A model generated the notes under the pieces. The model made no database searches and had not been told where the DNA came from. It saw nothing but the letters and a program-made list of their open reading frames with translations. From the IMG/VR virus record IMGVR_UViG_2690315994_000032: a stretch of 13,558 nt of DNA. One strand, given 5' to 3'. This DNA comes from a virus. Taxonomy: Duplodnaviria; Heunggongvirae; Uroviricota; Caudoviricetes. This document shows, one piece after another, positions 1-13,558 of this stretch. Made by a program: the position numbers and the translations under genes. How positions within the stretch are numbered: position 1 is the first letter of the stretch; every line of letters begins with the position of its first letter.

Positions 1-483
1 ATGACGAAGAAAAAAGCACATAAACCTGGTTCAGCGACCATCGCGCTTAACAAGCGCGCCCGTCACGAATACTTTATTGAAGAAGAGTTCGAAGCGGGAC
101 TTGCCCTGCAAGGCTGGGAAGTTAAATCCCTGCGCGCAGGAAAAGCCAATATTAGCGACAGCTATGTCCTTCTGCGCGACGGAGAAGCGTTCCTGTTTGG
201 CGCAAACATCACGCCAATGGCTGTGGCTTCTACGCATGTGGTGTGCGATCCTACCCGTACCCGCAAGTTACTTCTCAACCAGCGCGAACTTGATTCGTTG
301 TACGGTCGCGTCAATCGAGAAGGCTATACCGTAGTGGCGCTCTCCCTGTACTGGAAAAATGCCTGGTGCAAAGTGAAAATCGGCGTCGCCAAAGGTAAGA
401 AACAGCACGATAAACGTTCAGATATCAAAGAACGCGAATGGCAGGTGGATAAAGCGCGTATCATGAAAAACGCCCACCGTTAA
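1..483 (+). CDS. smpB: SsrA-binding protein SmpB (trans-translation cofactor)
   Basis: Complete 160-aa ORF, ATG at 1 to TAA at 481-483. Translation ([48 protein letters not shown]...) is recognisable as enterobacterial SmpB, and it sits directly upstream of the tmRNA gene as in E. coli. Confidence 0.97.
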
Positions 484-697: not shown

Positions 698-1060
698 GGG
701 GCTGATTCTGGATTCGACGGGATTTGCGAAACCCAAGGTGCATGCCGAGGGGCGGTTGGCCTCGTAAAAAGCCGCAAAAAATAGTCGCAAACGACGAAAA
801 CTACGCTTTAGCAGCTTAATAACCTGCTTAGAGCCCTCTCTCCCTAGCCTCCGCTCTTAGGACGGGGATCAAGAGAGGTCAAACCCAAAAGAGATCGCGT
901 GGAAGCCCTGCCTGGGGTTGAAGCGTTAAAACTTAATCAGGCTAGTTTGTTAGTGGCGTGTCCGTCCGCAGCTGGCAAGCGAATGTAAAGACTGACTAAG
1001 CATGTAGTACCGAGGATGTAGGAATTTCGGACGCGGGTTCAACTCCCGCCAGCTCCACCA
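698..1060 (+). ncRNA. ssrA: tmRNA (transfer-messenger RNA, SsrA)
   Basis: 363-nt sequence starting GGGGCTGATTCTGGATTCGACGGG and ending GGTTCAACTCCCGCCAGCTCCACCA. It has the tRNA-like acceptor/T-arm ends and an internal tag frame, and matches the E. coli tmRNA as I recall it. Confidence 0.96.
787..819 (+). other. tmRNA tag-peptide reading frame (resume codon GCA; encodes ANDENYALAA, stop TAA)
   Basis: GCA AAC GAC GAA AAC TAC GCT TTA GCA GCT TAA read directly from the sequence inside ssrA; this is the canonical enterobacterial degradation tag. Confidence 0.9.
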
Positions 1061-1070
1061 AATAAATCAA

Positions 1071-1099
1071 GGGGTTACGTGAAAGCGTAGCCCCTTTTT
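1071..1099 (+). terminator. Rho-independent terminator downstream of ssrA
   Basis: GC-rich hairpin GGGGTTACG-tgaaag-CGTAGCCCC followed by TTTTT, 10 nt after the tmRNA 3' CCA. Confidence 0.75.
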
Positions 1100-1118
1100 C
1101 TTAGGTAGTGGCGGCAAA

Positions 1119-1157
1119 ATGGCGACAGACTTTTGCGTCCATCTTGCCTGTCGCCAT
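1119..1157. repeat. Perfect 10-bp inverted repeat ATGGCGACAG-N19-CTGTCGCCAT (candidate operator or structured leader)
   Basis: Arms at 1119-1128 and 1148-1157 are exact reverse complements, read directly. The element ends 27 bp upstream of the ATG of the 160-aa ORF. Confidence 0.5.
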
Positions 1158-1183
1158 CTTGAAATCATGCAAAGAGGTTTGAC

Positions 1184-1666
1184 ATGGAAGAACTTCACTT
1201 TGTTTACATCAATGCAAATGGTCGTATCGGTGTTCACTCAATACAGAGCATCAGTTATAGCGAAAATCACATACAGGGCATTTGTAAGAACACCGATCGA
1301 ATAAAAACCTTCCGAAAAGACCGCATTCTTAAACAATACGATTCACAAGAACAAGCCATTCAGGAATGCGCGTCATTCCTCCCCGAAAACTACTCACATC
1401 TCACTAAGCAGTCAGGTCCGAAAAAAAATACATTCGATGTGTGTTTCACCGGATTTAAGAAAGCAGATAAAGAAAGGTTGGTTGATAAGGCGAATGAACA
1501 AGGATTAACGGTAAGAACATCTGTAACCCAAAACCTTCAGATGCTCTGTTGCGGTTACAATGCAGGCCCATCAAAAGTATCGGCAGCCAGGATGAAAGGC
1601 ACTATCATCATAGATGAGCCTGGCTTTATACATTTTCTTGAAACGGGTGAGATCCCAGATGAATAA
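1184..1666 (+). CDS. Hypothetical 160-aa protein with WYL-like N-terminal and BRCT-like C-terminal domains (accessory/cargo gene at the prophage end)
   Basis: ORF with good SD (AAGAGG at 1172-1177, 6-nt spacer to ATG 1184). Visibly AT-rich compared with flanking genes. N-terminal segment YINANGRIGVHSIQSISYSENHIQGICKNTDRIKTFRKDRI fits the WYL-domain pattern; C-terminal segment FDVCFTGF...GLTVRTSVTQNLQMLCCGYNAGPSKVSAARMKGTIIIDEPGF fits a LigA-type BRCT motif. Domain calls are by motif recognition only. Confidence 0.7.
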   Translation: MEELHFVYINANGRIGVHSIQSISYSENHIQGICKNTDRIKTFRKDRILKQYDSQEQAIQECASFLPENYSHLTKQSGPKKNTFDVCFTGFKKADKERLVDKANEQGLTVRTSVTQNLQMLCCGYNAGPSKVSAARMKGTIIIDEPGFIHFLETGEIPDE

Positions 1667-1694
1667 AAACCTGCCGTAGCAGGTTCTCTTTCTT
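1665..1694. terminator. Bidirectional rho-independent terminator between convergent ORF160 and ogr
   Basis: Hairpin ACCTGC-cgta-GCAGGT (1669-1684) flanked by an A-run upstream and a T-rich run downstream, placed exactly between the two convergent stop codons. Confidence 0.6.
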
Positions 1695-1911
1695 AAAAAT
1701 TCATATGGCCCTGACCACCTGGCAATGGATGTGGAGGGGCTGTGGCAATCACTGCAGGTGTCACAATAAACCGGACCACTGTTTCATGGGTAACAAAAGT
1801 GCTCCCGCAGTTAATATTTTGGCACTGGCAGTAACGCTCTTTGGTGCTTTCTGTTACTTGAAAACTGCTCCTTGTGTGCGCCGCATGACCACACTTTGGA
1901 CAATTCATCAT
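1693..1911 (-). CDS. ogr: Ogr/Delta-family zinc-finger late-gene transcriptional activator
   Basis: Translation MMNCPKCGHAAHTRSSFQVTESTKERYCQCQNINCGSTFVTHETVVRFIVTP...PHPLPGG has the C-x2-C...C-x4-C zinc-finger arrangement and length (about 72 aa) of P2 Ogr. The six-frame ORF extends to 1956, but the MM start at 1911/1908 matches the Ogr N-terminus. Confidence 0.85.
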   Translation of the reverse strand: MMNCPKCGHAAHTRSSFQVTESTKERYCQCQNINCGSTFVTHETVVRFIVTPAVIATAPPHPLPGGQGHMNF

Positions 1912-1979
1912 ATCCAGATCCCTACCTTTGCTATCAGAATCATTGCAATGATACACAAGATATCAATATTGAGAACCAT

Positions 1980-3080
1980 TTATTCCATTTCAAGATCACT
2001 AATTTTCACTTCAAGTTCAATACTGGTCGTAAAACCGTTATCCGGGCTGACGGTATGTGTCAGAGTCGTAATGGTCCATTCCGCATCATCTATTGGCTGT
2101 TTAAAGCCACTGACCTTCACAGGCATTTCCGTGTAGAGATCTGCCCGACCTTCCGCCAGTTGTAGCGAGAATGACGCAACACCGCGTTGCAGGCGTTCCC
2201 ACTGCATTTTCGCCGCTCGTTCGGCGTTGCTCCGGTTGGCATAAGTGCGATTAAGTACCAGCACGTTTTCATCCGTCCCCACCAGATAATCGCCCTGCTT
2301 CGCTTCCGGCTCTTTCTTCTGCTTCTTAGTTCTGCGCTTACGCTTCACCGTGGTGCTTTCTTTCTTCGCGGGTTCGCGGGTATGCAACCAGCTGGCAATG
2401 ACGCCCGTATAGGCTCCGCGATCTGCCAGGGTAAAGCGGTGACTGTCGCCGTCCTTACGCGTGATAGTGATCACCGGCAGTGGTTTACCGCTGGCGCTTT
2501 TGCCCTGTCCCTGCCGGATGAATAACAGATTGCCATTTTTCACCGATGCAATAGCACCGTACTGGCGCGCCAGTCGCATCAGAAAACTGCCGTCACTCTC
2601 ATTGGTCTGGTCTATATGTTCCACGGGTTTATCTGACAGGTCTTTACCCAATGCCATCTTCAGTTTGTGCCGTGCAGCTATTTCCTTCACCACTTCCCCA
2701 ACGGTGGTCTTGTGCCACGACTTTTCACGGCGGGTATTCAGCGTTTCACGAAAATCAGCACTTCGCGCCCGGATAGTCAGGCGGTCCGGTGCGCCAGTGT
2801 GTTCAATCTCGTCCACCGTGAATGCCCCTTTCGGGAAAAGCGGCTGCCCCTTCCAGCCCAGCGCCAGCGTAATAACCGCACCACGGCGCGGCAGCACGAT
2901 TTTTCCGTCGGCGTCGTCCAGCTCCAGATCAAGCTGGTCTGCTTCAAAGCCCCGATTGTCCGTCAGCGTCAAACTCATCAGGCGGTTATCCAGCACAGTG
3001 GTGATATCCCTGCCCTCAATACTGATGCTGAATGCGGGAGTTTTGTTGCCTTTGTTAAGCAGTTCAGAGCTGAAATTCAC
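1980..3080 (-). CDS. D: Phage late control / tail protein D (P2 gpD family)
   Basis: 366-aa ORF at the position and orientation expected after U in P2 synteny. Start is GTG at 3080-3078, overlapping the U stop as GTGA, with GGGAGGG SD upstream. Family assignment by recall of gpD-like sequence features. Confidence 0.85.
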   Translation of the reverse strand: MNFSSELLNKGNKTPAFSISIEGRDITTVLDNRLMSLTLTDNRGFEADQLDLELDDADGKIVLPRRGAVITLALGWKGQPLFPKGAFTVDEIEHTGAPDRLTIRARSADFRETLNTRREKSWHKTTVGEVVKEIAARHKLKMALGKDLSDKPVEHIDQTNESDGSFLMRLARQYGAIASVKNGNLLFIRQGQGKSASGKPLPVITITRKDGDSHRFTLADRGAYTGVIASWLHTREPAKKESTTVKRKRRTKKQKKEPEAKQGDYLVGTDENVLVLNRTYANRSNAERAAKMQWERLQRGVASFSLQLAEGRADLYTEMPVKVSGFKQPIDDAEWTITTLTHTVSPDNGFTTSIELEVKISDLEME

Positions 3081-3562
3081 GACAGCAGCCCTCCCACCGT
3101 TTTACTGATATCGCTTAAGGCAGACGTTGCCGTGTCCTGCAGATTATTCAGTTGCGCACTGAGATCACCGAACATATCGGACAGGGATTCATCCACCCGT
3201 TTGAGCGACAGGGTGAACTCAATCCGGCGCGGCATACCGTCGCGGAAAAACTCCGTTTTAGTCTGATTCAGTCCCTCAATCACATACATGCCGTAAATCG
3301 TGCCGCTGCCTTCAATCAGGGGCCATGCTTTCCCCTGTTCTGCCATCTGCTCCAGTACCAGCAACGACAGCCTGCCGCCTGTTATCTCCGGCATAAGAAC
3401 ACCAGAAAGCGTCAGCATGTCGTTGTCCGGTCCCAGAAACTGCGTGGACGGACGTCGGTTGACCCGGCTGTTTGCCGCATGTCGCCAGCTGCGTTGATAC
3501 TGCAGTTCCTGATACGGCACAGTGCGCAGCATAAACACGTACAATCCCAGCACCATCATCAT
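3077..3562 (-). CDS. U: Phage tail protein U (P2 gpU family)
   Basis: 161-aa ORF starting MMMVLGLYVFMLRTVPYQELQ, typical of P2 gpU. ATGA overlap with the T stop; located between T and D. Confidence 0.88.
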   Translation of the reverse strand: MMMVLGLYVFMLRTVPYQELQYQRSWRHAANSRVNRRPSTQFLGPDNDMLTLSGVLMPEITGGRLSLLVLEQMAEQGKAWPLIEGSGTIYGMYVIEGLNQTKTEFFRDGMPRRIEFTLSLKRVDESLSDMFGDLSAQLNNLQDTATSALSDISKTVGGLLS

Positions 3563-6500
3563 GCGTCGTATCCCCCCTGATCGCTGTAGTTACTCCTGGC
3601 TTTTGCCTTCAGCCTGCGTTCACGTTCATCAAGCTGGCGTGCCACCTCCCGCGCAATATCCTGCGCACTTTGTCCTGGCTGCGTCTGGATGATGATCTGC
3701 GTCGGTGCCTCAATCCGTTGAGCGGGCGGCACAGTGGCTGCACGACTCACCATCGCTTCGCCGCCTTTCGCGGGAAGTGCCAAAGGATGTAACGGCGGAA
3801 GCTCTGCAGGCGCGGCAGCAACGCCCATCATTCCGGCAACAACGGCAGCCAGTGCAGCTGTATTTCTCCGACTGGTCACGTTTGCCGGACCGTTGACAAT
3901 TTCAGGCCCGTTTTCACCGACAATGCCGAACTGCCCGCGCGGGATATAGCCGCCGCTGTCATACATCCCCGCAAAGCCATATCCCCATGACGGAAAACCA
4001 CCCGATGGCATCATCACTTTACCGTCTGCATTCACCGTCGCAGGTTGCTGACGCGTCACGCTTTCCGGCAGTTTCGCCTTTGCAGCCTCTTTACTGACAA
4101 TACCGAGTTTCTCCAGCAACCAGGAAACGCCGGATTTCAGGGAGTCCAACGGATGCATGACCATATTCAGCCCTTCCGCCAGTGCCTCCCCGAATCGTCG
4201 CCCCATTGCCGCTGCGCTCTGCAGTTCGGCAGAGGTCGACTTAACAGGCGTCAGCAGATCAGTAAACCAGCCCCACAACGCCTGTACTTTGTCGCCAATC
4301 CACTGGAACACGGGCTTAAGCGGTTCGAATGCAGCACTGATGGGACCTGCCGCCGCTTTGAATCCTTCCACCACGCCACCGAGAAATGCGGTGATGGGTT
4401 GCCAGTATTTCCAGACAACCAGCGCCACGCCCGCCAGTGCAGTAACCACAAGACCTATCGGACTGAGCAGAGCACCTAACAGACCAGATACGGCATACAG
4501 GGCAACGCGCAGCATCGCCAGCGGACCGGATGCCAGCACACGCAGCACCGCGCCTGCGGCAGCCAGTCCACCGCGTAGTGCTGCCAGTGGATTCATAAAC
4601 ATCACAGCAACCGCACGTAAACCGGATAATCCAGACCGCAACAGTGCAACCGGCACACCTGCTACAGTTTTCAGGACATTCCCCGTCAGTGATGCGGTGC
4701 GGCGCAAAGACGACAACGGCGCAGTAAGTAAACCCGCTGCGTTGCCCGATGAAGCAAGCCCGCGTCGCAGCAGTGCCAGTGGAGCGCCAGCTAACCAGGA
4801 CAACGCGCTGCTGGTTCGTGTTACTGCTGCCGTAACGGAAGGTAACGTTTTGATACCCAGCACAGAGAATCCCAGACGGATGACTGCCAGCGGCCCCAGC
4901 ACTGCAGCCAGCGCCACCGCTAAGGTGCCGAGGCCTACGGTAACCGCAGCCACAACAGCCGCTACTTTCATCAGTGTGCCTGTCAGTTCCGGGTTAGCTT
5001 CCACCCAGCGGCGCAACGCCCCCGTGATGCTTTTTACCGTGTACAGAATATCCATCAGCGGCTGGCGCAGCGTTTCGCCCAGGCTGCTGAAGGTGTTCTG
5101 CGCTCCGGTTTTGACCAGCAACCACTGAGCGGAAAGTGAGTCTTTGTTGATGTCGGATTCTTTCTGCATGGAACCGAGCGCATCATTGCCCGCTGTCAGT
5201 TTTAGCTGGCGCTGCAGTTCCGGAAGGTTGTTTGCCAGTTTCGCTGCATCATCACCAAACTCTTTACCAAACAACATGGTCATGGCAGACAGACGCTTGT
5301 CCTGCGGCAGTGCGTTCACCTTCTCCAGCACACGCTGGATAGTTCCCATCGCATCCTTCGTCATCTGCTTTTCAATCACTTCAGGATTGAGTTTCAGCAG
5401 ATTCATCCCTTCAAAGAAACTCTTACTTTGCATGGTGGCAATGGACAATTCACGCACCATCGCGTTTGCTGCACTGGCAGCAACCTCCGGCGCAGCGCCC
5501 AGTGTCAGGAAGGTGGAACCCAGCGCCGCCGCTTTACGATAATCCAGACGATCTGCCACACCGCCCAGGCGTTGCATGACATCAATGATGTCTGACCCTT
5601 TCGACATGGCGTTATCATCCAGATAGTTCAGCGCATCACCGAGCTGTTCAATATTGCGGGTAGGGATTTTGTAGAGCTGGGCGATTTTCCCCAGACTTTC
5701 TGACAGTTCATCCGCTGGCAGCTCAAAGGCTGTTGCCGCCTTTGCTGCCGTGCTGGCGAAGGCCAGCAGGTCACGTTTCTGGTCTTCCCAGCTGTCGTCA
5801 GGATTTGCGACGTTCATGCGCGCACCACCTTCAACCAGTGCGGCAAAGTCCACAGCACCGTTTTCCATCGGCAACTGTTCGCTGGCAGCCTTGATGGCAT
5901 CCTGCATTTCGTAAAAACGCGCAGTGCGGTTGCCATTATCATCACGCAGACCATTGACCTGCTTTGCCACACCTTTCATGGCATCTTCCATGCTGGTATA
6001 GCTTTTTACTGCTGCCATCACTGGCGCACCCATTGCCAGCCCTGCAGCCGTGGTAGTGGCTCCGGCTCCTGCGATGCGATCGCGCACTTCAAGCCGTCTT
6101 GAGTATTGTTCTCTGGCAGCGTTCATCCGTGCCTGTTGTTCACCCAGACGTTTAAGTGCTTTTTGCTGGCCCTCCAGTGCCTGCCTTGTTTCTTCAGCAT
6201 TTTTCTTAAGTTCTCGCTGGGCACTACTGAGTTGTCTGGTATCAATCCCTGATTCTTTAAGTGCCTGACGTTGTCTCTGGACCGCCCCCAACAAGCCGTT
6301 ATAGGTCTGCTGAAGTTCCTGTACTCGTGTTTTGGCCTGACTGAATAACTTTGCCTGCGCGGCGGTTGGCCTGTTAGTGGCAGCAAATTGTGTGGCGAGT
6401 TTTGCCGCCTCTTCGCGGGCTGCGTTCAGGTTGTTGGCTGTTATGGCTAGTTGCGAGCGCGTCTTGCGAAATTCATCAATTCTGCCAGCCTGCTTATTCA

Positions 6501-6636
6501 GTTCTTTGAGGCTGTTTCGGGTATACTGAATTGCGCCAGCCAGCTCTTTCGAACTGGCCTGTGCAACACGGAATGGGCGGGTGAGTTTGTCAACCGCATT
6601 AAGAATGACCTGCAGCCGCAGGTTGTTATCACTCAT
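3559..6636 (-). CDS. T: Tail tape measure protein (P2 gpT family)
   Basis: 1025-aa ORF. N-terminal half is coiled-coil-like (Q/A/K/E/R-rich heptad-like sequence), the central and C-terminal part carries hydrophobic Gly/Ala/Leu-rich repeats (…ALLRRGL…, …ALLRSGL…) and a GYGFAGMYDSGGYIPRGQFGIVGENGPE motif. Lies between E/E' and U. Confidence 0.9.
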   Translation of the reverse strand: MSDNNLRLQVILNAVDKLTRPFRVAQASSKELAGAIQYTRNSLKELNKQAGRIDEFRKTRSQLAITANNLNAAREEAAKLATQFAATNRPTAAQAKLFSQAKTRVQELQQTYNGLLGAVQRQRQALKESGIDTRQLSSAQRELKKNAEETRQALEGQQKALKRLGEQQARMNAAREQYSRRLEVRDRIAGAGATTTAAGLAMGAPVMAAVKSYTSMEDAMKGVAKQVNGLRDDNGNRTARFYEMQDAIKAASEQLPMENGAVDFAALVEGGARMNVANPDDSWEDQKRDLLAFASTAAKAATAFELPADELSESLGKIAQLYKIPTRNIEQLGDALNYLDDNAMSKGSDIIDVMQRLGGVADRLDYRKAAALGSTFLTLGAAPEVAASAANAMVRELSIATMQSKSFFEGMNLLKLNPEVIEKQMTKDAMGTIQRVLEKVNALPQDKRLSAMTMLFGKEFGDDAAKLANNLPELQRQLKLTAGNDALGSMQKESDINKDSLSAQWLLVKTGAQNTFSSLGETLRQPLMDILYTVKSITGALRRWVEANPELTGTLMKVAAVVAAVTVGLGTLAVALAAVLGPLAVIRLGFSVLGIKTLPSVTAAVTRTSSALSWLAGAPLALLRRGLASSGNAAGLLTAPLSSLRRTASLTGNVLKTVAGVPVALLRSGLSGLRAVAVMFMNPLAALRGGLAAAGAVLRVLASGPLAMLRVALYAVSGLLGALLSPIGLVVTALAGVALVVWKYWQPITAFLGGVVEGFKAAAGPISAAFEPLKPVFQWIGDKVQALWGWFTDLLTPVKSTSAELQSAAAMGRRFGEALAEGLNMVMHPLDSLKSGVSWLLEKLGIVSKEAAKAKLPESVTRQQPATVNADGKVMMPSGGFPSWGYGFAGMYDSGGYIPRGQFGIVGENGPEIVNGPANVTSRRNTAALAAVVAGMMGVAAAPAELPPLHPLALPAKGGEAMVSRAATVPPAQRIEAPTQIIIQTQPGQSAQDIAREVARQLDERERRLKAKARSNYSDQGGYDA

Positions 6637-7065
6637 CGTTGGCCCCGCTTCTCTGAATCGCTTTATACCGCCATTCCAGCACTTCGGTCAGCGGCATAAC
6701 GTCAGTAACGGATGGCGGCCAGTGAAAGATGGTGGCGATATCAGCCACCAGATCGTCAACCGTCAGGCTGTCGGTAAACCGGCAAGCACCGACTTCTTCA
6801 ACAAAAAAGTGACAACCTCAACCGACATGGCAGTGAGATCTGCCGGGTCCATCTCTGCAATTTCCTGTGCAGTCAGTGCCGGACTGGAGATACGGGGGAT
6901 CACGGTCATCATCGCGTTCACATCCATATCCATAATGGCCTGCAGGCGTGTACCGCGCAGCGCACCGGACTGCGGTTTACGCAGCACAATTTCGGTGATT
7001 TCTGTTTTACCGCGCTTGATGGGAGTATCCAGTTGAATAGTCTTTTCAGTCTGCTTATCGCTCAT
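6629..7065 (-). CDS. E+E': Tail assembly chaperone E+E' made by programmed -1 ribosomal frameshift
   Basis: Hand translation of the -1 frame from the slippery site gives 58 stop-free codons (VEEVGACRFTDSLTVDDLVADIATIFHWPPSVTDVMPLTEVLEWRYKAIQRSGANDE) ending at TGA 6631-6629, just before the T start codon. Same architecture as P2 E/E'. Confidence 0.75.
6763..7065 (-). CDS. E: Tail assembly chaperone E (P2 gpE family), zero-frame product
   Basis: 100-aa ORF with AGGA SD upstream of ATG 7065, located between FII and T. Contains the slippery heptamer near its 3' end. Confidence 0.85.
   Translation of the reverse strand: MSDKQTEKTIQLDTPIKRGKTEITEIVLRKPQSGALRGTRLQAIMDMDVNAMMTVIPRISSPALTAQEIAEMDPADLTAMSVEVVTFLLKKSVLAGLPTA
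6802..6808 (-). other. Slippery heptamer T-TTT-TTG for the E/E' -1 frameshift
   Basis: Minus-strand TTTTTTG (plus-strand CAAAAAA at 6802-6808) in the zero frame of E, read directly. Confidence 0.75.
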
Positions 7066-7119
7066 TTTGCTGTCCTGTAAATTGGGTTCTGGCGCGGTAT
7101 CCCGCGCCGTTCAGATACA

Positions 7120-7635
7120 TCAGAGGCCGAGGGCGTTGCGGTGCGCTTCCATCAGGTCCACACCGTCCACAATTTCCACCATGTTGATAAGGTCCACTTC
7201 ATAGAGCACCTCACCATTGATGGTCAGCTTCGCGTAGCTGTTGGTACTGGTCACTTTGGTGGTGTTGCTTTCGCCCGTCTTCCACTCGCCGGAATCCACT
7301 TCTTTGTGACGTCCCAGCACCACAAGCTCCACGGCCTGCACTTCCCCGGTATCGTCACGCTGGATAGAGCCGGTAAAGCGCAGCTGAATGCCATCTACCG
7401 TGGCTTTGCCCATCTGCTTAAACAGCAGCAGTTCAGTACCACCAATGGAAAATTCTGTGTCCAGCGCACTGTCATCAAGCCCCAGATCCACATCCACTGC
7501 ACCCGGCATTCCGCCGCCGCGATACTTCTCATATTTGCGGGTGAATTTCGGCAGCGTCAGCGACTCAACGATCCCCTGCCAGTTGTTCCCGTCGTTAAAC
7601 AGGTTCAGATGTTTTAATTTGCGTGGTAAAGCCAT
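7120..7635 (-). CDS. FII: Tail tube protein (P2 gpFII family)
   Basis: 171-aa ORF beginning MALPRKLKHLNLFNDGNNWQG, immediately downstream of FI in the same orientation. Confidence 0.9.
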   Translation of the reverse strand: MALPRKLKHLNLFNDGNNWQGIVESLTLPKFTRKYEKYRGGGMPGAVDVDLGLDDSALDTEFSIGGTELLLFKQMGKATVDGIQLRFTGSIQRDDTGEVQAVELVVLGRHKEVDSGEWKTGESNTTKVTSTNSYAKLTINGEVLYEVDLINMVEIVDGVDLMEAHRNALGL

Positions 7636-7644
7636 GTTGTCCCC

Positions 7645-8817
7645 TTACGCGCTGACCTGGCTGGCGAAATTCACCAGGTACTGATCGGTGATGCGCTGGC
7701 GCAGCATCAGATTTTCAAGTGGCGGCACTGGCGTGTAGTCATAGTCGATGGTGAGTTTTCCGGCTTTCAGCGTGTCTTTGTCGTTCACCGACTCATCCAG
7801 CCAGCAATCACCACCAATGAGATAGCCCTGACTGACCAGGCTGCGTATTTTGGCGCGGATACCTTCGATAATGTCGCGGGCCAGCGACGGGTTAAGCGGT
7901 TTATCCACCGCCCACATGTGTGCTTCTGCCATTGTGTCCGTCAGCACCTGCGCCGTGCGGGTGTAGTTTTCGAAGGCAAAAAGCGGATCATCGCTCAGAC
8001 AGCGGGAACCCCAGAAGCGGAAACCGTCTTTACGCACAAGCGTGGTGACGTCGTTCTGGTTCAGCAGACCTGCATCGGTTGCCGGGTCCTGCAGATCCCA
8101 GAACACATCTGCAGAAATTCCGGTGACACCGTTCACGCCCACGTTGGACAGGCTTTTGTGCCACCCGGTCTGCTCATCAATTTTGGCACGCAGACCAAGT
8201 GCACGGGCGGTGGCATATGCCGTTGCTTCGGCATTCAGCACCGTGTCCCAGCCAGTAAAGTCGGGCCAGATCAGCATTCCTTCGCGCTGGCTGAAGTTTT
8301 CACGGTAAGTGATCTCCTCCTGTACCGTCTTGCAGCCATACGCTGACAGGTAAGCAAACCCACGCAGGCTTTGCGCCACGCTCAGCAACTCAGTCGCAAC
8401 GGCTTTGTTATCGTGACCTGGCACGCCGAGAATGCGCGGTTTAACGCCGAGCTGTGACTGGGCAGATAACAGAGCTTTCATGCCTGTTTTTTTACCTTCA
8501 GCAGTCACTGCGCCGATGATATTGGTCGTGGTTTCTTCTTCCGTTTCACCCTGCGGCACACGCACAACAACGGTCACGGGTTTTGCCTGGTCAGCGATGG
8601 CATCCAGCGAACGGGCCAGCGTGCCGGACTCACCCGCTTTACCGCTGGCAGTCAGCACATCAGTGATCAGCACAGGTTTGTTAAGAGGAAACATTTTTGC
8701 ATCGGCATCATCGCCCGTGCAGACCATGCCCACGATGGCGGTGCTCACCGTGGTAATGGATCGGGTGCCTTCGTTGACTTCAACAACGCGCACCCCGTGG
8801 TGGTAATCCTGAGCCAT
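7645..8817 (-). CDS. FI: Contractile tail sheath protein (P2 gpFI family)
   Basis: 390-aa ORF beginning [21 protein letters not shown]; perfect AGGAGG SD upstream of ATG 8817. First gene of the FI-FII-E-T-U-D block. Confidence 0.92.
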
Positions 8818-8893
8818 AGTGGCGAACCTCCTGATTGGATTAGGCTTCGCCCTATGTTGAAGTGATTGTGCCTGACAAACAGCTAAGCGCAGT

Positions 8894-8911
8894 TGTACCG
8901 TTATTCACACA
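8894..8911 (-). promoter_or_regulatory. Candidate Ogr-dependent late promoter element (TGT-N12-ACA dyad) upstream of FI
   Basis: Minus-strand TGTGTGAATAACGGTACA, read directly, about 80-95 bp upstream of the FI start. P2-family late promoters carry a TGT-N12-ACA activator site centred near -55. Confidence 0.55.
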
Positions 8912-8959
8912 AAATGACGGTATTTGTCTACTTGCAGGGATAATCAAAATAATGCTGAT

Positions 8960-9526
8960 TCAGGGGGATTCATTACTCTTATTTGCCGGAAATTTTCTAT
9001 AAATTGTGGAAACACCCACATCAAAAATCAGTGCAATACGCTGTCTTGATTCTCCGGCCTCGAGTAAACGCCCAATCTGTGCCCACTGTTCGGTGGTCAA
9101 CTTAGGACGGCGTCCACCTACTCTGCCTTTGGCACGAGCTGCAGCCAGCCCTGCCCTGGTACGTTCAACTATCAGTTCGCGTTCCATTTCAGCCAGGGCA
9201 CCCATGACATGAAAAAAGAAACGGCCCATTGGGGTACTGGTATCAATACTGTCAGTCAGGCTTCGGAAATTCACACCACGCTGGCGCAACTCCTCTATCA
9301 GCGTAACAAGATGCCGCATACTGCGCCCCAACCTGTCCAGCTTCCAGACAACCAGCGTGTCTCCTGCCGATAGTGTCCTGAGCAGCTTTTTCAGCCCCGG
9401 TCTGTCGGACTTAGTGCCACTGATTTTATCCTCAAAAATCCGCTCACATCCCGCGCAGTTCAGTGCATTACGTTGCAAATCGGTGTTCTGGTCATTTGTT
9501 GACACGCGTACATAGCCAATAAGCAT
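8960..9526 (-). CDS. pin: Serine DNA invertase, Hin/Gin/Pin family
   Basis: Translation MLIGYVRVSTNDQNTDLQRNALNCAGCERIFEDKISGTKSDRPGLKKLLRTLSAGDTLVVWKLDRLGRSMRHL... has the resolvase/invertase catalytic N-terminus (serine in YVRVST) and a C-terminal HTH, closely resembling e14 Pin. The six-frame ORF starts at 9532 (MIM…); ATG 9526 has better SD spacing (GGGGGA, 5 nt). Confidence 0.93.
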   Translation of the reverse strand: MLIGYVRVSTNDQNTDLQRNALNCAGCERIFEDKISGTKSDRPGLKKLLRTLSAGDTLVVWKLDRLGRSMRHLVTLIEELRQRGVNFRSLTDSIDTSTPMGRFFFHVMGALAEMERELIVERTRAGLAAARAKGRVGGRRPKLTTEQWAQIGRLLEAGESRQRIALIFDVGVSTIYRKFPANKSNESP

Positions 9527-9581
9527 GATCATCCCCCTGAATAAAAACCGGAGATGATGCCAGTTAGCCGTTATCTCTGCA

Positions 9582-9607
9582 TTTTCATAAACGTTGGTTT
9601 GGGAGAA
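9582..9607. other. 26-bp gix/pix-like invertase crossover site A (TTTTCATAAACG-TT-GGTTTGGGAGAA), immediately upstream of pin
   Basis: Imperfect 12-bp inverted half-sites around a 2-bp core, resembling the Hin-family consensus (TTATCnAAAACC-core-GGTTTTnGATAA). Shares an identical 15-bp stretch TTGGTTTGGGAGAAG with site B in gene H. Confidence 0.7.
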
Positions 9608-9651
9608 GATGAACCGCCCCGGTTTTCCTGGAGAGTGTTTTATCTGTGAAC

Positions 9652-10539
9652 TCAGGCTGCCAGATCATCGTTTCTGATGGAAGCATAATAAGCTTTTTCT
9701 GCTTCTGCCGGAGGGATATGACCCAGCCTTCCCAGCAATCGTCGATTGTTATACCAGTCCACCCACGTGAGTGTGGCCAGTTCCACTTCTGCACGGTTTT
9801 TCCAGCTCTTACGGTGTATTACCTCCGCTTTGTAAAGACCATTGATGCTCTCCGCCATCGCGTTGTCATACGAGTCACCTGTACTCCCTGTTGATGCCAG
9901 CAGTTTTGCTTCTTTTAGTCGCTCCGTATAGGCCAGTGATACATACTGAGAACCTTTATCACTGTGATGGACTGTGCCGGACGGCCGACGGGCCCACAAC
10001 GCCTGCTCCAGTGCATCCAGCACGAATGTCGTTTCCATAGACGATGAGACTCGCCACCCCACGATGCATCCGGCAAACACATCAATGATGAACGCCACAT
10101 AGACGAAGCCCTGCCATGTGCTGACGTAAGTAAAATCAGCCACCCACAGCTGGTCAGGACGTTCTGCCACGAACTGACGGTTTACGCGGTCGCCTGCGGA
10201 AACGGCTTTCCGGCTGACGGTAGTACGGACCTTTTTACCCCGGAGAACACCGGCAAGTCCCATAACCGCCATGAGGCGCGCCACTGTACATCTGGCCACC
10301 CTGATACCTTCGCGTAACAACTGGCGCCAGACTTTACGCACACCGTACACCTGATGATTTTCATCGTATACGCGCTGTATCTCTCTCTTCAGCCAGTCAT
10401 CGCGCTGCGCACGGGCACTGCGTTTATCAGGATGATGTCGCTGTTGCTGACAGTGGTAATACGTTGACGGGGCAATATGCAGTTCACTGCATACCGGTCC
10501 GACCCCGTACTGCTCACGCAGCTTATCCAGCAGTGGCAT
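9652..10539 (-). CDS. IS629 OrfB (DDE transposase catalytic subunit)
   Basis: 295-aa ORF with an integrase-core pattern (…WVADFTYV…, …HHSDKGSQY…, …DNAMAESINGLYKAE…). Its ATG overlaps the OrfA stop as TAATG, next to an A6 run, so an OrfAB fusion by frameshift is expected. Confidence 0.88.
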   Translation of the reverse strand: MPLLDKLREQYGVGPVCSELHIAPSTYYHCQQQRHHPDKRSARAQRDDWLKREIQRVYDENHQVYGVRKVWRQLLREGIRVARCTVARLMAVMGLAGVLRGKKVRTTVSRKAVSAGDRVNRQFVAERPDQLWVADFTYVSTWQGFVYVAFIIDVFAGCIVGWRVSSSMETTFVLDALEQALWARRPSGTVHHSDKGSQYVSLAYTERLKEAKLLASTGSTGDSYDNAMAESINGLYKAEVIHRKSWKNRAEVELATLTWVDWYNNRRLLGRLGHIPPAEAEKAYYASIRNDDLAA

Positions 10540-10865
10540 TATTTTTTCCAGAGGCGGTCGAACTCCGCCTTCGCAAAATAAGCGGAAGCCTGGCGAAGGA
10601 TATCGTTACTGCGGCGCAGTTCACGATTTTCACGTTCCAGCTCTTTCAGACGCTGACGTTCAGCGGTGGTGAATCCACCATCACCACTCCCGGTATCCCG
10701 CTCATGCTGACGAACCCACACACGCAGAGTCTCTGGCGTACAGCCAATCTTTGGGGCAATGGAACAAATTGCCGCCCATTGTGAGTCATATTCGCCCTGA
10801 CTTTCCAGAACCATACGAACTGCCCGTTGACGGACCTCGGGGGAAAAACGTGTATTTTTAGTCAT
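10539..10865 (-). CDS. IS629 OrfA (HTH transposase subunit)
   Basis: 108-aa ORF with HTH region and leucine-zipper-like C-terminus ([25 protein letters not shown]), typical of IS3-family OrfA. Confidence 0.88.
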
Positions 10866-10920
10866 CCTGTTTACCTCTTTCTCAGGGAGTTTAGTCTCCA
10901 GGATTCCCGGGGCGGTTCAC

Positions 10921-11403
10921 AGCTTCCTGCCTTATCTCGCCTGGGCGTTCTCTGTGGATCGCTGGGACGAGGGCTGGACAGAAAGCGTCAAACGCCAGGT
11001 AGTGAAGGATGCTTTTTATATTCATCAGCATAAAGGAACTACCAGTGCCGTGCGGCGGGTGGTGGAACCGTTCGGATTCCTGATCCGCATTATTGAGTGG
11101 TGGCAGACCGGAGAAACACCGGGCACGTTTCGCCTGGATATCGGCGTGCAGGACCAGGGCATCACTGAAGATACCTATCTGGAACTTGAGCGGCTGATAA
11201 GCGATGCCAAACCATGTAGCCGTCACATGATCGGCATGTCCATCAATCTGCAGACCAGCGGTCCGCATTGGGTGGGGGCCGCCAGCTATCTTGGCGAAGA
11301 AATCACGATCTATCCGTATATCAACGAAACAATTATTTCCGGCGGCACCGCGCATGAAGGCGGGGCGGTCCATGTTATTGACACAATGAGAGTGAATCCA
11401 TGA
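10921..11403 (+). pseudogene. I: Baseplate assembly protein I (P2 gpI family), 5'-truncated by IS629
   Basis: The reading frame is open from the first base after the IS end (SFLPYLAWAFSVDRWDEGW…) with no in-frame start upstream; the six-frame ORF begins only at an internal GTG (10954). The translation resembles the gpI region …LLPWLAWAFSVDRWDE… as I recall it, so the N-terminus is missing. Stop overlaps the H start as ATGA. Confidence 0.75.
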
Positions 11404-12956
11404 GCACAAAATTTTATACCCTGCTGACGGATATTGGCGCGGCGAAACTTGCCAGCGCCGCCGCGCTCGGTGTGCCGCTAAAAATTACCCATATGGCGGT
11501 GGGCGATGGCGGCGGAACATTGCCAACGCCGGACGCCAAGCAGACAGCATTGGTAAATGAGAAACGCCGGGCTGCGCTGAATATGCTCTATATCGACCCG
11601 CAGAACAGCAGCCAGATTATTGCTGAACAGGTGATCCCTGAAAACGAGGGCGGTTGGTGGATACGTGAAGTGGGCCTGTTTGATGAGTCCGGGGCATTGA
11701 TTGCCGTGGGCAACTGCCCGGAAAGCTATAAGCCGCAACTGGCTGAAGGCAGCGGGCGTACCCAGACCGTGCGCATGGTGCTGATTACCAGCAGCACGGA
11801 CAATATCACCCTGAAAATCGACCCTGCCGTAGTGCTGGCAACCCGCAAGTATGTGGATGACAAGGTACTGGAGCTGAAGGTGTACGTGGATGATCAGATG
11901 GCAAAACATCTTGCCGCACCGGACCCGCATTCACAGTATGCACCCAAAGAAAGTCCGACGTTTACCGGGACACCAAAAGCGCCAACTCCAGCGGCAGGGA
12001 ATAACACCACGCAGGTTGCGACCACCGCGTTTGTTCAGGCGGCACTGACGGCTCTTATTAATGGTGCGCCAGCCACGCTGGACACGCTGAAAGAAATAGC
12101 CGCAGCCATTAACAATGATCCGAATTTCAGTACCACCATTAACAATGCGCTGGCACTGAAAGCGCCGTTGTCGAGTCCGGCACTCACCGGAACGCCAACA
12201 GCCCCCACTGCTGCACAGTCGGTCAACAATACACAGATTGCCACCACGGCTTTTGTGAAATCGGCGATTGCAGCAATGGTAGGTTCTGCACCTGCGGCAC
12301 TGGATACACTGAACGAACTGGCGTCGGCGTTGGGGAATGATCCGAACTTTGCCACGACAATGCTTAATGCGCTGGCAGGTAAACAACCGCTGGACAATAC
12401 GCTGACTAATTTGAGTGGAAAGGATGTCGCTGGTCTTCTCGCATACCTTGGTTTGGGAGAAGGTTCTGCATTACCCGTTGGTGTGCCTGTTCCGTGGCCT
12501 TCCGCCACTCCGCCAACAGGCTGGCTGAAATGCAACGGTGCGGCTTTTTCTGCTGAAGAATACCCGGAACTGGCAAAGGCTTACCCGACCAATAAATTGC
12601 CTGATTTACGCGGTGAATTTATTCGTGGCTGGGATGACGGTCGCGGGATTGATACTGGTCGCGCTTTGCTTAATTGGCAGCCACACACAATTTTGGACCA
12701 TGCACACTATATGGAATTATGGACAGGGGACGGACTCGCCGCAGGAAGTGCACGGGAAGGAGTAAACCCAGGAATACTGGCTACATACGGTGACGGGGGA
12801 ATAGTTAAAACGGACGAACCCGGTCTTAAGGTGCCTTCCTCACTACGAGCTATTAGCTCTCGTAGTGTTAAACGTTATGGTGAAATTAGTGAAAATGTAG
12901 GTACAGAAACTCGTCCTCGTAACATCGCTTTTAATTATATTGTGAGGGCCGCATGA
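11400..12956 (+). CDS. H: Tail fibre protein (P2 gpH-like N-terminus; C-terminal tail-collar/receptor-binding module)
   Basis: 518-aa ORF. N-terminus MSTKFYTLLTDIGAAKLASAA…MAVGDGGG… is gpH-like. Middle has two tandem copies of the conserved fibre repeat (…TGTP.APT…NNTQ.ATTAFV…LDTL.E.A.A..NDPNF.TT..NALA.K.PL). C-terminus has collar motifs (GWLKCNGAAFSAEEYPELAKAYP…LPDLRGEFIRGWDDGRGID). Confidence 0.9.
   Translation: MSTKFYTLLTDIGAAKLASAAALGVPLKITHMAVGDGGGTLPTPDAKQTALVNEKRRAALNMLYIDPQNSSQIIAEQVIPENEGGWWIREVGLFDESGALIAVGNCPESYKPQLAEGSGRTQTVRMVLITSSTDNITLKIDPAVVLATRKYVDDKVLELKVYVDDQMAKHLAAPDPHSQYAPKESPTFTGTPKAPTPAAGNNTTQVATTAFVQAALTALINGAPATLDTLKEIAAAINNDPNFSTTINNALALKAPLSSPALTGTPTAPTAAQSVNNTQIATTAFVKSAIAAMVGSAPAALDTLNELASALGNDPNFATTMLNALAGKQPLDNTLTNLSGKDVAGLLAYLGLGEGSALPVGVPVPWPSATPPTGWLKCNGAAFSAEEYPELAKAYPTNKLPDLRGEFIRGWDDGRGIDTGRALLNWQPHTILDHAHYMELWTGDGLAAGSAREGVNPGILATYGDGGIVKTDEPGLKVPSSLRAISSRSVKRYGEISENVGTETRPRNIAFNYIVRAA
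11952..12395 (+). repeat. Tandem duplication (2 x about 222 bp, 74 aa) inside tail-fibre gene H
   Basis: Two successive units starting AGTCCGACGTTTACCGGGACACC (11952) and AGTCCGGCACTCACCGGAACGCC (12174), encoding SPTFTGTPKAPT… and SPALTGTPTAPT… with roughly 60% protein identity by eye. Unit boundaries are approximate. Confidence 0.6.
12436..12461. other. 26-bp gix/pix-like invertase crossover site B (TTCTCGCATACC-TT-GGTTTGGGAGAA) inside gene H at the constant/variable junction
   Basis: Same architecture as site A; right half-site and TT core are identical to site A. Encodes …LAYLGLGEG…, immediately before the collar/receptor-binding C-terminus, matching the Sc/Sv junction position in Mu/P1/e14-type switches. 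Confidence 0.7.
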
Positions 12957-13558
12957 TGAATAAAGCTGTATTAAATAGCGAACTCATTGCCATAAAAGCG
13001 GGAGATATTACCGTTTATAATTATGATGGTGAAACGCGGGAATATATTTCTACATCAACTGAATATCTCGCTGTCGGCGTCGGTATCCCGGCATGTTCCT
13101 GTCTGGATGCACCAGGTACACATAAAGCTGGTTATGCAATCTGTCGCTCTGTAGATTTAAATTCATGGGAATATGTGCCAGACCATCGCGGTGAAGTTGT
13201 CTATAGTACCGAAACGGGAGATACCAAAGAAATCACAGTTCCGGGTGATTACCCTGAAAATACAACCACTATCGCCCCATTAACGCCATACGATAAATGG
13301 GATGGTGAGAAATGGGTGACGGATACCGAGGCACAGCATAGCGCCGCACTAGACGCGGCAGAAGTAAAGCGCCAGTCGCTGATTGATGCTGCAATGGCTT
13401 CCATCAGTCTGATTCAACTGAAATTACAGGCCGGGCGGAAGCTGACGCAGCCAGAAAACACCCGACTTAACGCTGTGCTGGATTATATTGACGCGGTGAC
13501 GGCAACAGATACCAGCACAGCGCCGGACGTCATCTGGCCTGAACTGCCGGAGGCGTAG
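12953..13558 (+). CDS. G: Tail fibre assembly chaperone (P2 gpG / Mu U / Tfa family)
   Basis: 201-aa ORF with ATGA overlap to the H stop and GAGGG SD. The C-terminal region (…QSLIDAAMASISLIQLKLQAGRKLTQPENTRLNAVLDYIDAVTATDTSTAPDVIWPELP) is the conserved Tfa chaperone motif. The stop codon is the last 3 bases of the window. Confidence 0.88.
   Translation: MMNKAVLNSELIAIKAGDITVYNYDGETREYISTSTEYLAVGVGIPACSCLDAPGTHKAGYAICRSVDLNSWEYVPDHRGEVVYSTETGDTKEITVPGDYPENTTTIAPLTPYDKWDGEKWVTDTEAQHSAALDAAEVKRQSLIDAAMASISLIQLKLQAGRKLTQPENTRLNAVLDYIDAVTATDTSTAPDVIWPELPEA

Follow-up and report, generated by a model that had tools for sequence, protein, structure and literature searches.

A Pin/pix tail-fibre inversion module of a P2-like Escherichia coli prophage at ssrA, broken by IS629

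The stretch of DNA analysed here (13,558 nt; hereafter the window) begins with smpB and ssrA and continues into a P2-like prophage, of which it carries a block of tail genes, the DNA invertase gene pin, a copy of IS629, a fragment of the baseplate gene I (I') and the tail-fibre genes H and G (Table 1). The tail block has the gene order of the related loci L007, L024 and L004, as judged from Pfam labels, and its DNA is 99.3–99.9% identical to that of L004, L005 and L007. In the latter three loci the collinear late-gene order of P2-like phages (Peduoviridae), V W J I H G ... FI FII E T U D ogr, is complete. In the window, FI to ogr is intact and lies on the strand opposite to I'-H-G, and V, W, J and the 5' end of I are missing. 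The intact I of L004 occupies positions 9399–10004, the window aligns from position 10920 on with L004 starting at 9521, and the Pfam profile Tail_P2_I could be aligned to the fragment at profile positions 49–138 only. H consists of a constant part, which extends as far as site B, followed by a variable part, Hv. The exact H protein was found in 83 collection blocks, and each contig read had the canonical context described below. The Hv-G cassette, which is shared by P2-like, Mu-like and e14-like elements, is the only fibre C-terminus/assembly set in the window; the opposed set is not represented, Hv' being absent.

Table 1. Features of the window and their coordinates.
Feature	Position	Strand	Remarks
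smpB	1-483		Pfam SmpB 1.5e-57
ssrA (tmRNA)	698..1060	+	ARAGORN; chromosomal attachment region beside prophage end
P2-type tail block D, U, tape measure T, E/E', tube FII, sheath FI	1980..8817	-	ORFs; same strand as pin
pin	8960..9532 (ORF)	-	intact Din-family serine DNA invertase; likely start ATG 9526, giving 188 aa
Site A	9582..9607	+	reverse complement TTCTCCCAAACC AA CGTTTATGAAAA; equals published pixR
Putative join base	9609	.	A in window, N in public contig, C in canonical prophage
IS629 (IS3 family), 1310 bp	9610..10919	-	orfA 10539-10865, orfB 9652-10539
Gene I 3' fragment (baseplate)	10920..11403	+	first 122 nt gone
H, tail fibre	11400..12956	+	intact, 518 aa; Pfam Phage_tail_fib + Collar
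Site B	12436..12461	+	TTCTCGCATACC TT GGTTTGGGAGAA; inside H
G, tail-fibre assembly, partner of Hv	12953..13558	+	Pfam Caudo_TAP 3.5e-30

Pin has the size (about 190 aa) and domain order of a small serine recombinase, with an N-terminal resolvase domain (Pfam Resolvase, 2.3e-53) that contains the catalytic-serine motif YVRVSTNDQ and a C-terminal helix-turn-helix (HTH_7, 1.5e-15). It matches the structures of Gin (3UJ3/4M6F) over residues 3–186 (8e-93) and shares 86% identity with PinE from an e14-like element. At the positions equivalent to Hin-H107 and Gin-M114, within FFHVMGALAEMEREL, the wild-type H and M are retained. By analogy with Hin, whose enhancer is located about 100 bp from hixL (PMC3798978), a Fis-binding recombinational enhancer is expected in the 5' part of pin.

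Site A lies upstream of pin, 50–56 bp from the start of the gene, with its inner half facing IS629 and its outer half facing pin, and is identical to e14 pixR at all 26 positions (Table 3 in PMC3241671). Site B equals the pix sites of the same table over the inner half and the AA/TT core (14/14), which are the same in pixL and pixR, while its outer half agrees with pixL at 9 of 12 positions. In both 26-bp elements a 2-bp core separates 12-bp half-sites that are imperfect inverted repeats (12 + 2 + 12), in accordance with the dix consensus of Din-family inversion systems. The 15-mer TTGGTTTGGGAGAAG is present in the window in exactly two copies (9594–9608 and 12448–12462), both on the plus strand, where 0.02 chance matches are expected and none of 200 shuffled sequences contained two; the surrounding 27-nt repeats (9582–9608 and 12436–12462) are 81% identical. 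A third pix-like site was not found in the window at up to three mismatches. Alignments to the H genes of relatives stop at 12447–12462, that is, exactly at site B. A preliminary description of this DNA had recognised a tail-fibre host-range switch with two sites that share 15 identical bp on the same strand. Both the repeat and the type of switch are borne out, and the alignment to known sites that it had proposed identifies them as pix sites. It is also correct that, as assembled, the two are direct repeats (2854 bp apart) with IS629, truncated I and the constant part of H between them, and that Hv-G could not be inverted in such a layout. The inverted sites of a Din-family inversion system are thus lacking in the window and in L024, both sites being on the plus strand; whether they are lacking in the physical genome depends on the putative IS629 join considered below.

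The canonical layout of the module, I-H(const)-site-Hv-G> <G'-Hv'-site-pin>, was found in 20 related loci; these are all of the two-site loci apart from the window and L024, and each has one forward and one reverse site. Both states of the switch are represented: two isolates of a single strain (L001 and L002) are in opposite states, and L028 and L036 likewise differ from L029, L030, L034 and L037. In L006 the segment has been lost naturally, with the junction in a CTTCTC microhomology, away from the core dinucleotide. Positions 968–9608 of the window are the reverse complement of L004 21557–12918 (99.85% identity), and positions 10920–13558 correspond to L004 9521–12159 (99.77% identity). Therefore, both flanks of IS629 come from one canonical prophage, with their relative orientation reversed; in the canonical prophage the same two pieces lie on opposite strands, 3.4 kb apart. 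Accordingly, the direct orientation of the sites stands as a description of the assembled sequence but not as a property of the switch, since it arises at IS629, where the opposite-strand pieces are joined.

The IS629 copy has the length (1.3 kb), the TG...CA inverted repeats (25 nt, 9610–9634 and 10895–10919) and the orfA/orfB pair of this element, with the Pfam domains HTH_Tnp_1, HTH_21 and rve, and a copy in E. coli O55:H7 DEC5E matches it with 100% identity. It is flanked by ...GAAG(A/N) on the left and CAGCTT on the right, and a 3-bp target-site duplication is absent. In this it is unlike a simple IS629 insertion; at this spot, L001 has an IS1203 that is a simple insertion with a CTT duplication. 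Insertions of IS629/IS1203 within pin modules are common (strains 2020N21-246, O157:H7 DEC4E and MS 119-7). The insertions in the window and in 2020N21-246 are at most 1 bp apart and in opposite orientation. An IS629/IS1203 hot spot at the inner edge of pix is not established by two lineages, one of them with a putative join.

The only public contig with the layout of the window is E. coli CYBJ01000038.1, from a short-read draft (assembly GCA_001284825.1), which agrees with it at 12604 of 12605 positions; the sole difference is an N at 9609, and the join of pin and site A to IS629 is putative for that reason. The A at this position in the window fits neither the canonical prophage nor IS629. 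The contig reads through the first IS629, yet ends 102 bp into the next. L024, which is one contig of the same sequence as the window, continues past G with 126 bp of the canonical G' 3' end on the opposite strand and then enters a second IS629-type copy, which has the orientation of the first and differs from it at 2 of the first 102 bp. Neither an intact alternative G'/Hv' pair nor a third site, both of which the preliminary description had proposed to seek to the right, is present in this extension. Neither the layout of the window nor any of its three junctions was found in 5426 complete E. coli genomes, and the site A/IS629 junction with 0–2 spacer bases had no match in species-representative genomes or JGI metagenomes. 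Exact-protein look-ups (G of 201 and 200 aa, H, Pin and the I' fragment) retrieved canonical or unrelated contexts, save L024, and a literature search on the assembly accession found nothing.

Taken as a whole, the locus belongs to a P2-like E. coli prophage at ssrA, whose ordinary Pin/pix module for tail-fibre inversion has been broken by IS629. The direct orientation of its sites is secondary to the IS629 join, be it an IS-driven flip or an assembly join, and does not represent a new type of switch. As to how the layout was made, we lean, with a little less than even confidence, towards inversion by recombination between two copies of IS629. The starting point would have been the canonical order, J I H(const)-[site B]-Hv G> <G' <Hv'-[site A] pin> FI..., in which the sites are inverted and Pin acts with Fis and an enhancer to flip Hv-G/G'-Hv', so that H ends in one of two C-termini. 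Insertions of three IS629-type copies would have followed, one each in I and G' and one where site A has its inner edge. A third copy and the recombination event are ones that we infer: the copies in I and beside site A, mutually inverted, would have undergone homologous recombination and flipped the I'(3')-H-G-G'(3') block, plus the G' copy and an Hv' remnant predicted to lie beyond the window. Such a flip would have brought site B to the strand of site A and left one hybrid IS629, lacking a target duplication, between pin/site A and I', whereas Hv', the 5' part of G', I(5') and J would have moved beyond the next IS copies. The outcome would be a dead remnant, in which there is no inverted partner site and hence nothing for Pin to invert. 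Whether the fibre specificity is locked, as the preliminary description had it, becomes moot, the baseplate gene I being broken and the upstream morphogenesis genes no longer adjacent. Against the inversion stand the N at the joining base of the sole public contig and the lack of the layout in complete genomes (0/5426); in addition, the model requires four events inside 3.4 kb. Models with two IS copies were considered and rejected: to invert the I'-H-G block, the copies at its own two ends would have to be inverted, but their ends point to direct orientation. Deletion adjacent to a single IS could not bring about the change of strand. An origin of the join through Pin was rejected as well, since the breakpoint lies at 9608/9609 and the core dinucleotide at 9594–9595.

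A serious possibility, albeit one that we place below an even chance, is that the layout is an assembly or scaffold join, in which a contig with pin and site A was linked to one with I'-H-G via a collapsed IS629 repeat. The real prophage would then be canonical and have received simple insertions of IS629 at three places (I, G' and next to site A), with sites that are still inverted and a segment that may continue to flip. The N sits exactly at the join of an otherwise identical contig, and the A in its place fits neither the flank nor the IS; scaffolders (SSPACE, for example) set a single 'n' between neighbouring contigs for which no overlap is found. The pin-side sequence ends at ...GGGAGAAG, the last base common to both flip states, where a unique flank would normally continue into the IS, and the unrelated draft contig L009 stops at this very base preceding the join. 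The end of the public contig within the next IS629 indicates that the IS copies were not resolved by the assembly, no complete genome has the layout, and a close relative flips normally with an IS1203 within its segment. On the other hand, the deposited sequence is contiguous bar one base, and the single N may equally be an ambiguous consensus from reads of other IS copies mapping to the junction. Moreover, ambiguous repeats are usually not extended through by scaffolders, and inversions between inverted IS copies are common, so that the layout is biologically plausible. The six junctions of flanks and IS ends are the same under three simple insertions without inversion; therefore, short contigs cannot discriminate between the two. 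If the segment flips with inverted sites, the pin-side half-site joined to Hv would read TTTTCATAAACGTTGGTTTGGGAGAAGGTTCTGC: the pin side, TTTTCATAAACG-TT-GGTTTGGGAGAAG, would adjoin GTTCTGC (Hv), and the constant part of H, TTCTCGCATACC-TT-GGTTTGGGAGAAG, would adjoin (C)TGAACCGCC (IS629).

It is improbable that IS629-I'-H-G-G'(3')-IS629 is a composite transposon or duplicated unit inserted beside site A, with a second H-G at the original place. The block is indeed flanked by two IS629-type copies in direct orientation, and the break (N) occurs at the left IS boundary only, the junction of the IS with I' being seamless. However, the two IS copies are not identical over the 102 bp available, nothing points to a second H-G copy, and the contig ends within the second IS, short of any target duplication.

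The preliminary description had further proposed a locked switch in which residual activity of Pin on the direct repeats would delete IS629, I' and the constant part of H. The direct sites of the assembled sequence and the intact pin gene are in line with this proposal, as is the behaviour of the hyperactive mutant Hin-H107Y, which deletes between direct hix sites at rates like those of inversion (PMC4817059). Pin, however, has wild-type residues at the positions where mutation confers Fis independence, and the wild-type Fis/enhancer reaction is orientation-specific, in explicit contrast to Hin-H107Y (PMC4817059; PMC3798978). When the core bases cannot pair after one exchange, ligation occurs only in the parental configuration, and the products are knots (PMC4817059). 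The segment loss in L006, which went through microhomology and not the core dinucleotide, also argues against deletion by the invertase. For these reasons the deletion is very unlikely, and resolution of direct repeats is not to be expected from wild-type Pin. Still more doubtful is a variant in which the direct repeats exist in the real genome and are still recombined by Pin, which would release a circle of 2.85 kb with IS629, I' and the constant part of H; the ambiguity at 9609 and the break at ...GGGAGAAG would then be traces of a mixed population. If true, a Fis-dependent invertase would here be working in nature as a resolvase. That sites A and B are alike by chance only, and are no recombination sites, can practically be dismissed given the 0.02 matches expected, the complete identity of site A to pixR and the recombination in relatives that falls exactly at these sites.

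Tail-fibre switches of the Pin/pix type are textbook systems, known from e14, Mu, P1 and P2-like prophages, damage by IS629 to E. coli prophages is well documented, and the locus in the window is a known system in a decayed state. Among the known systems nearest to it is the Pin/pix P-segment inversion system of the defective prophage e14 (E. coli K-12 pinE), with which it shares the pixR sequence of site A and the inner half and core of site B. As in the window, one site of e14 lies immediately upstream of pin, and its segment carries alternative fibre C-termini and assembly proteins (PMC4272514). Unlike e14, which is lambdoid, the element in the window is a P2-like prophage, its partner site is on the same strand, and its G'/Hv' half has been cut off by IS629. 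Gin/gix of Mu, Cin/cix of P1 and Hin/hix of Salmonella belong to the same Din family as Pin and depend on Fis and the enhancer; they share its domain order and 12 + 2 + 12 sites, although the half-sites in the window are of the pix type and not gix or hix. The logic of swapping tail-fibre C-termini is likewise the same, and Mu-like prophages carry the very Hv-G cassette of the window. The invertible loci of P2-like E. coli prophages, e.g. in EPEC E2348/69 (Goldberg et al. 2014, PMC4272514), have the order I-H-G/G'-H'-invertase-FI, which is the same in the canonical L004, L005, L007 (LF82) and L029 and has been observed in both orientations; in contrast to these, the copy in the window is disrupted by IS629 and cannot invert as assembled. 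Elements of the IS629/IS1203 type lie inside tail-fibre/pin modules of other E. coli prophages as well, and IS629 is described as highly active in EHEC (PMC7430833).

The biological weight of the locus is small. When an odd orientation of recombination sites is met beside a multi-copy IS element in a draft sequence, an IS-mediated rearrangement or a scaffold join should be suspected first. If the layout is real, the locus would be a further example of IS elements killing the phase-variation modules of prophages.

The two copies of the shared sequence just upstream of pin and within H are recombination sites. TTGGTTTGGGAGAAG occurs twice in the window, both times on the plus strand (9594–9608 and 12448–12462), where shuffling gives a chance expectation of 0.02 matches; two copies were reached in none of 200 shuffles. 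As a statement about the sequence, the pair of direct sites reported in the preliminary description is therefore real. Extending the two copies to 27 nt gives 81% identity between them, and no third site was found in the window with up to three mismatches allowed. Alignment with known pix sites also bears out the assignment made there: the reverse complement of site A matches pixR (TTCTCCCAAACC AA CGTTTATGAAAA; Table 3, PMC3241671) at 26 of 26 positions, whereas that of site B reads TTCTCCCAAACC AA GGTATGCGAGAA, in which the pix inner half and core are matched at 14 of 14 positions and the outer half of pixL at 9 of 12. Homology in H among relatives stops at 12447–12462, so that site B marks the boundary between the constant and variable parts of the gene. 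The window recombinase contains Resolvase and HTH_7 domains, matches the Gin crystal structures (8e-93) and shares 86% identity with a PinE.

Features of the window
Feature	Position	Strand
smpB	1–483	
ssrA/tmRNA	698–1060	
160-aa ORF	1184–1666	plus
ogr, D, U, tape-measure gene T, E/E', tube gene FII, sheath gene FI	1693–8817	minus
serine invertase gene (ORF, intact)	8960–9532	minus
site A	9582–9607	
IS629 (complete, 1310 bp), between the minus-strand and plus-strand blocks	9610–10919	
baseplate gene I, 3' fragment (I')	from 10920	plus
tail-fibre gene H	11400–12956	plus
site B (inside H)	12436–12461	
fibre-assembly gene G	12953–13558	plus

From smpB and ssrA/tmRNA the window passes into a P2-like prophage. 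Accessions for the I' protein bear the label Escherichia coli. The 160-aa ORF, located between ogr and the attachment end at ssrA, is conserved in relatives and may be a prophage cargo gene; its matches are all weak (a sub-threshold Pfam BRCT hit at 9e-4, and a hit at 1.7e-7 to the C-terminus of the PADLOC candidate PDC-S48).

Relatives of the locus were gathered by exact-protein look-ups and searches of E. coli genomes. Many P2-like prophages share the order J I H(const)-site-Hv G> <G' <Hv'-site pin> FI FII ..., where Hv and Hv' are alternative variable parts of H, and G and G' their assembly-gene partners. One forward and one reverse site were present in all 20 of the other two-site loci; two forward sites occurred only in the window and in a public contig with the same layout (L024). 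The switch is functional in nature: the P2-like prophage is the same in 2020N21-246 and 2020N21-246-1, two isolates of one E. coli strain, but its invertible segment points one way in the first and the other way in the second, and both flip states occur among complete genomes (L028 and L036 versus L029, L030, L034 and L037). Inversion has been shown experimentally in P2-like prophages and in e14 (PMC4272514). In both isolates an IS1203 (12314–13624 in L001 and 11480–12790 in L002, the respective loci) lies inside the segment and directly abuts the inner half-site, with a CTT target duplication; inversion thus tolerates a 1.3-kb IS right beside the crossover site. The IS629 of the window has the opposite orientation and is offset from this position by no more than 1 bp.

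Both flanks of IS629 derive from one canonical prophage, since window 968–9608 is the reverse complement of L004 21557–12918 (99.85% identity) and window 10920–13558 corresponds to L004 9521–12159 (99.77%). The two break points are 3.4 kb apart in the canonical prophage, relative to which the I'-H-G block is flipped with respect to pin. No target-site duplication flanks the window IS629 (...GAAG(A) on the left, CAGCTT on the right); the IS1203 of 2020N21-246, inserted at the same spot, has CTT on both sides. The preliminary description had proposed looking to the right of the window for an alternative G'/Hv' pair on the opposite strand. In L024, G' DNA does follow G on the other strand, but for only 126 bp, equivalent to the canonical 3' end of G', after which comes a second IS629-type copy oriented as the first. 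The IS ends join site A to the left inverted repeat, the right inverted repeat to I', and the 3' end of G' to a left inverted repeat, a pattern that fits three insertions, one each into gene I, G' and the inner margin of site A. Homologous recombination between the first and third of these copies, which would be inverted relative to each other, could then have flipped everything between them. Models with two IS copies, or with an adjacent deletion by a single IS, fail to yield the change of strand or the orientations of the IS copies. We tentatively give a physical inversion between IS copies not quite an even chance of accounting for the direct layout.

Alternatively, the layout may be an assembly join, the real sites still being inverted and possibly still flipping. 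L024 (E. coli GCA_001284825.1, CYBJ01000038.1) and the window agree at 12604 of 12605 positions, the sole difference being window 9609 (L024 position 8656), which is A in the window, N in L024 and C in the canonical prophage. The window appears to be CYBJ01000038.1 after substitution of the N, and this unverified base sits exactly at the join between pin and IS629. The N lies precisely between ...GGGAGAAG, the final stretch common to both flip states, and the first base of IS629. The draft contig L009, which is unrelated, terminates on the last base of GGGAGAAG. L024 crosses the IS629 of the window but, in the manner of short-read assemblies, halts after 102 bp of the next one. As all six flank/IS-end junctions are identical with or without the inversion, only linkage across the 1.3-kb repeat separates a real inversion from a scaffold join. 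Neither the layout nor its junctions were present in complete E. coli genomes, species-representative genomes or JGI metagenome contigs. Given the N at the join, the shared junctions and this absence elsewhere, an assembly join is a serious possibility, though below an even chance and slightly behind inversion; what little is left goes to other paths, among them a composite or duplicated block. Five independent contigs from drafts or metagenomes (L008, L010, L011, L012 and L013) have as their first base the one immediately preceding the start codon of pin (window 9533), which points to the short pin-upstream/pix region acting as a repeat or variable junction in many assemblies.

The preliminary description further proposed that residual Pin activity would delete the interval between the direct sites. 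The Fis-independent mutant Hin-H107Y has been reported to delete between direct hix sites at a rate matching that of inversion, which the authors contrasted with the Fis/enhancer-dependent wild-type reaction (PMC4817059). In the latter, orientation-specific synapsis is enforced by the invertasome (PMC3798978); cores unable to pair after one exchange are ligated only in the parental configuration, which yields knots (PMC4817059). At the positions equivalent to Hin-H107 and Gin-M114, the window Pin retains the wild-type H and M. Efficient deletion is therefore not expected. The only natural segment loss seen (L006 9900–9960; GCA_016076675.1) removed Hv, G, G' and Hv' entirely, joining the constant part of H to a pixR-type site, and left a single site adjoining pin; the junction falls in a CTTCTC microhomology instead of at the core dinucleotide. 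Resolution of direct repeats by a wild-type invertase in vivo would be the one surprising reading of the locus, and it has no positive support.

Parts of the module recur in other settings. A G protein identical to that of the window, with its Hv partner, is found in Mu-like prophages, an e14-like element and P2-like prophages (L003, L031, L032 and L033; gene at 6001–6603 in the last three), each time adjoining a Pin-type invertase; the Hv-G cassette is common to several phage families. In five loci the 3' fragment of gene I seen in the window is preceded by DNA of other origin (fragments of gpA, gpD or terminase), to which it is fused at one recurrent breakpoint, ...GG/TACCTGTCCGGTCAGC, located at ∼9954 in L018, L022 and L025 and at ∼9958 in L016 and L023, that is, 12 and 8 bp upstream of the position matching window 10920. 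No IS is present at these five junctions.

In parts and mechanism the window system is a Pin/pix system of the e14 type, which belongs to the Din family with Gin, Cin and Hin, and it occupies a location where many P2-like prophages carry such modules. As assembled, it has neither the inverted sites nor the two-cassette segment, both defining features of a working inversion system. Disruption of pin modules by IS629/IS1203 recurs: the e14-like modules of E. coli O157:H7 DEC4E (L026 2180–5703) and MS 119-7 (L027 4077–5505) bear one or two IS1203/IS3-family copies in pin or the adjacent fibre-tip gene, so that IS decay of these switches is recurrent. The window locus offers nothing new in kind; the best description of it is a decayed member of the Pin/pix system, not a variant of that system.
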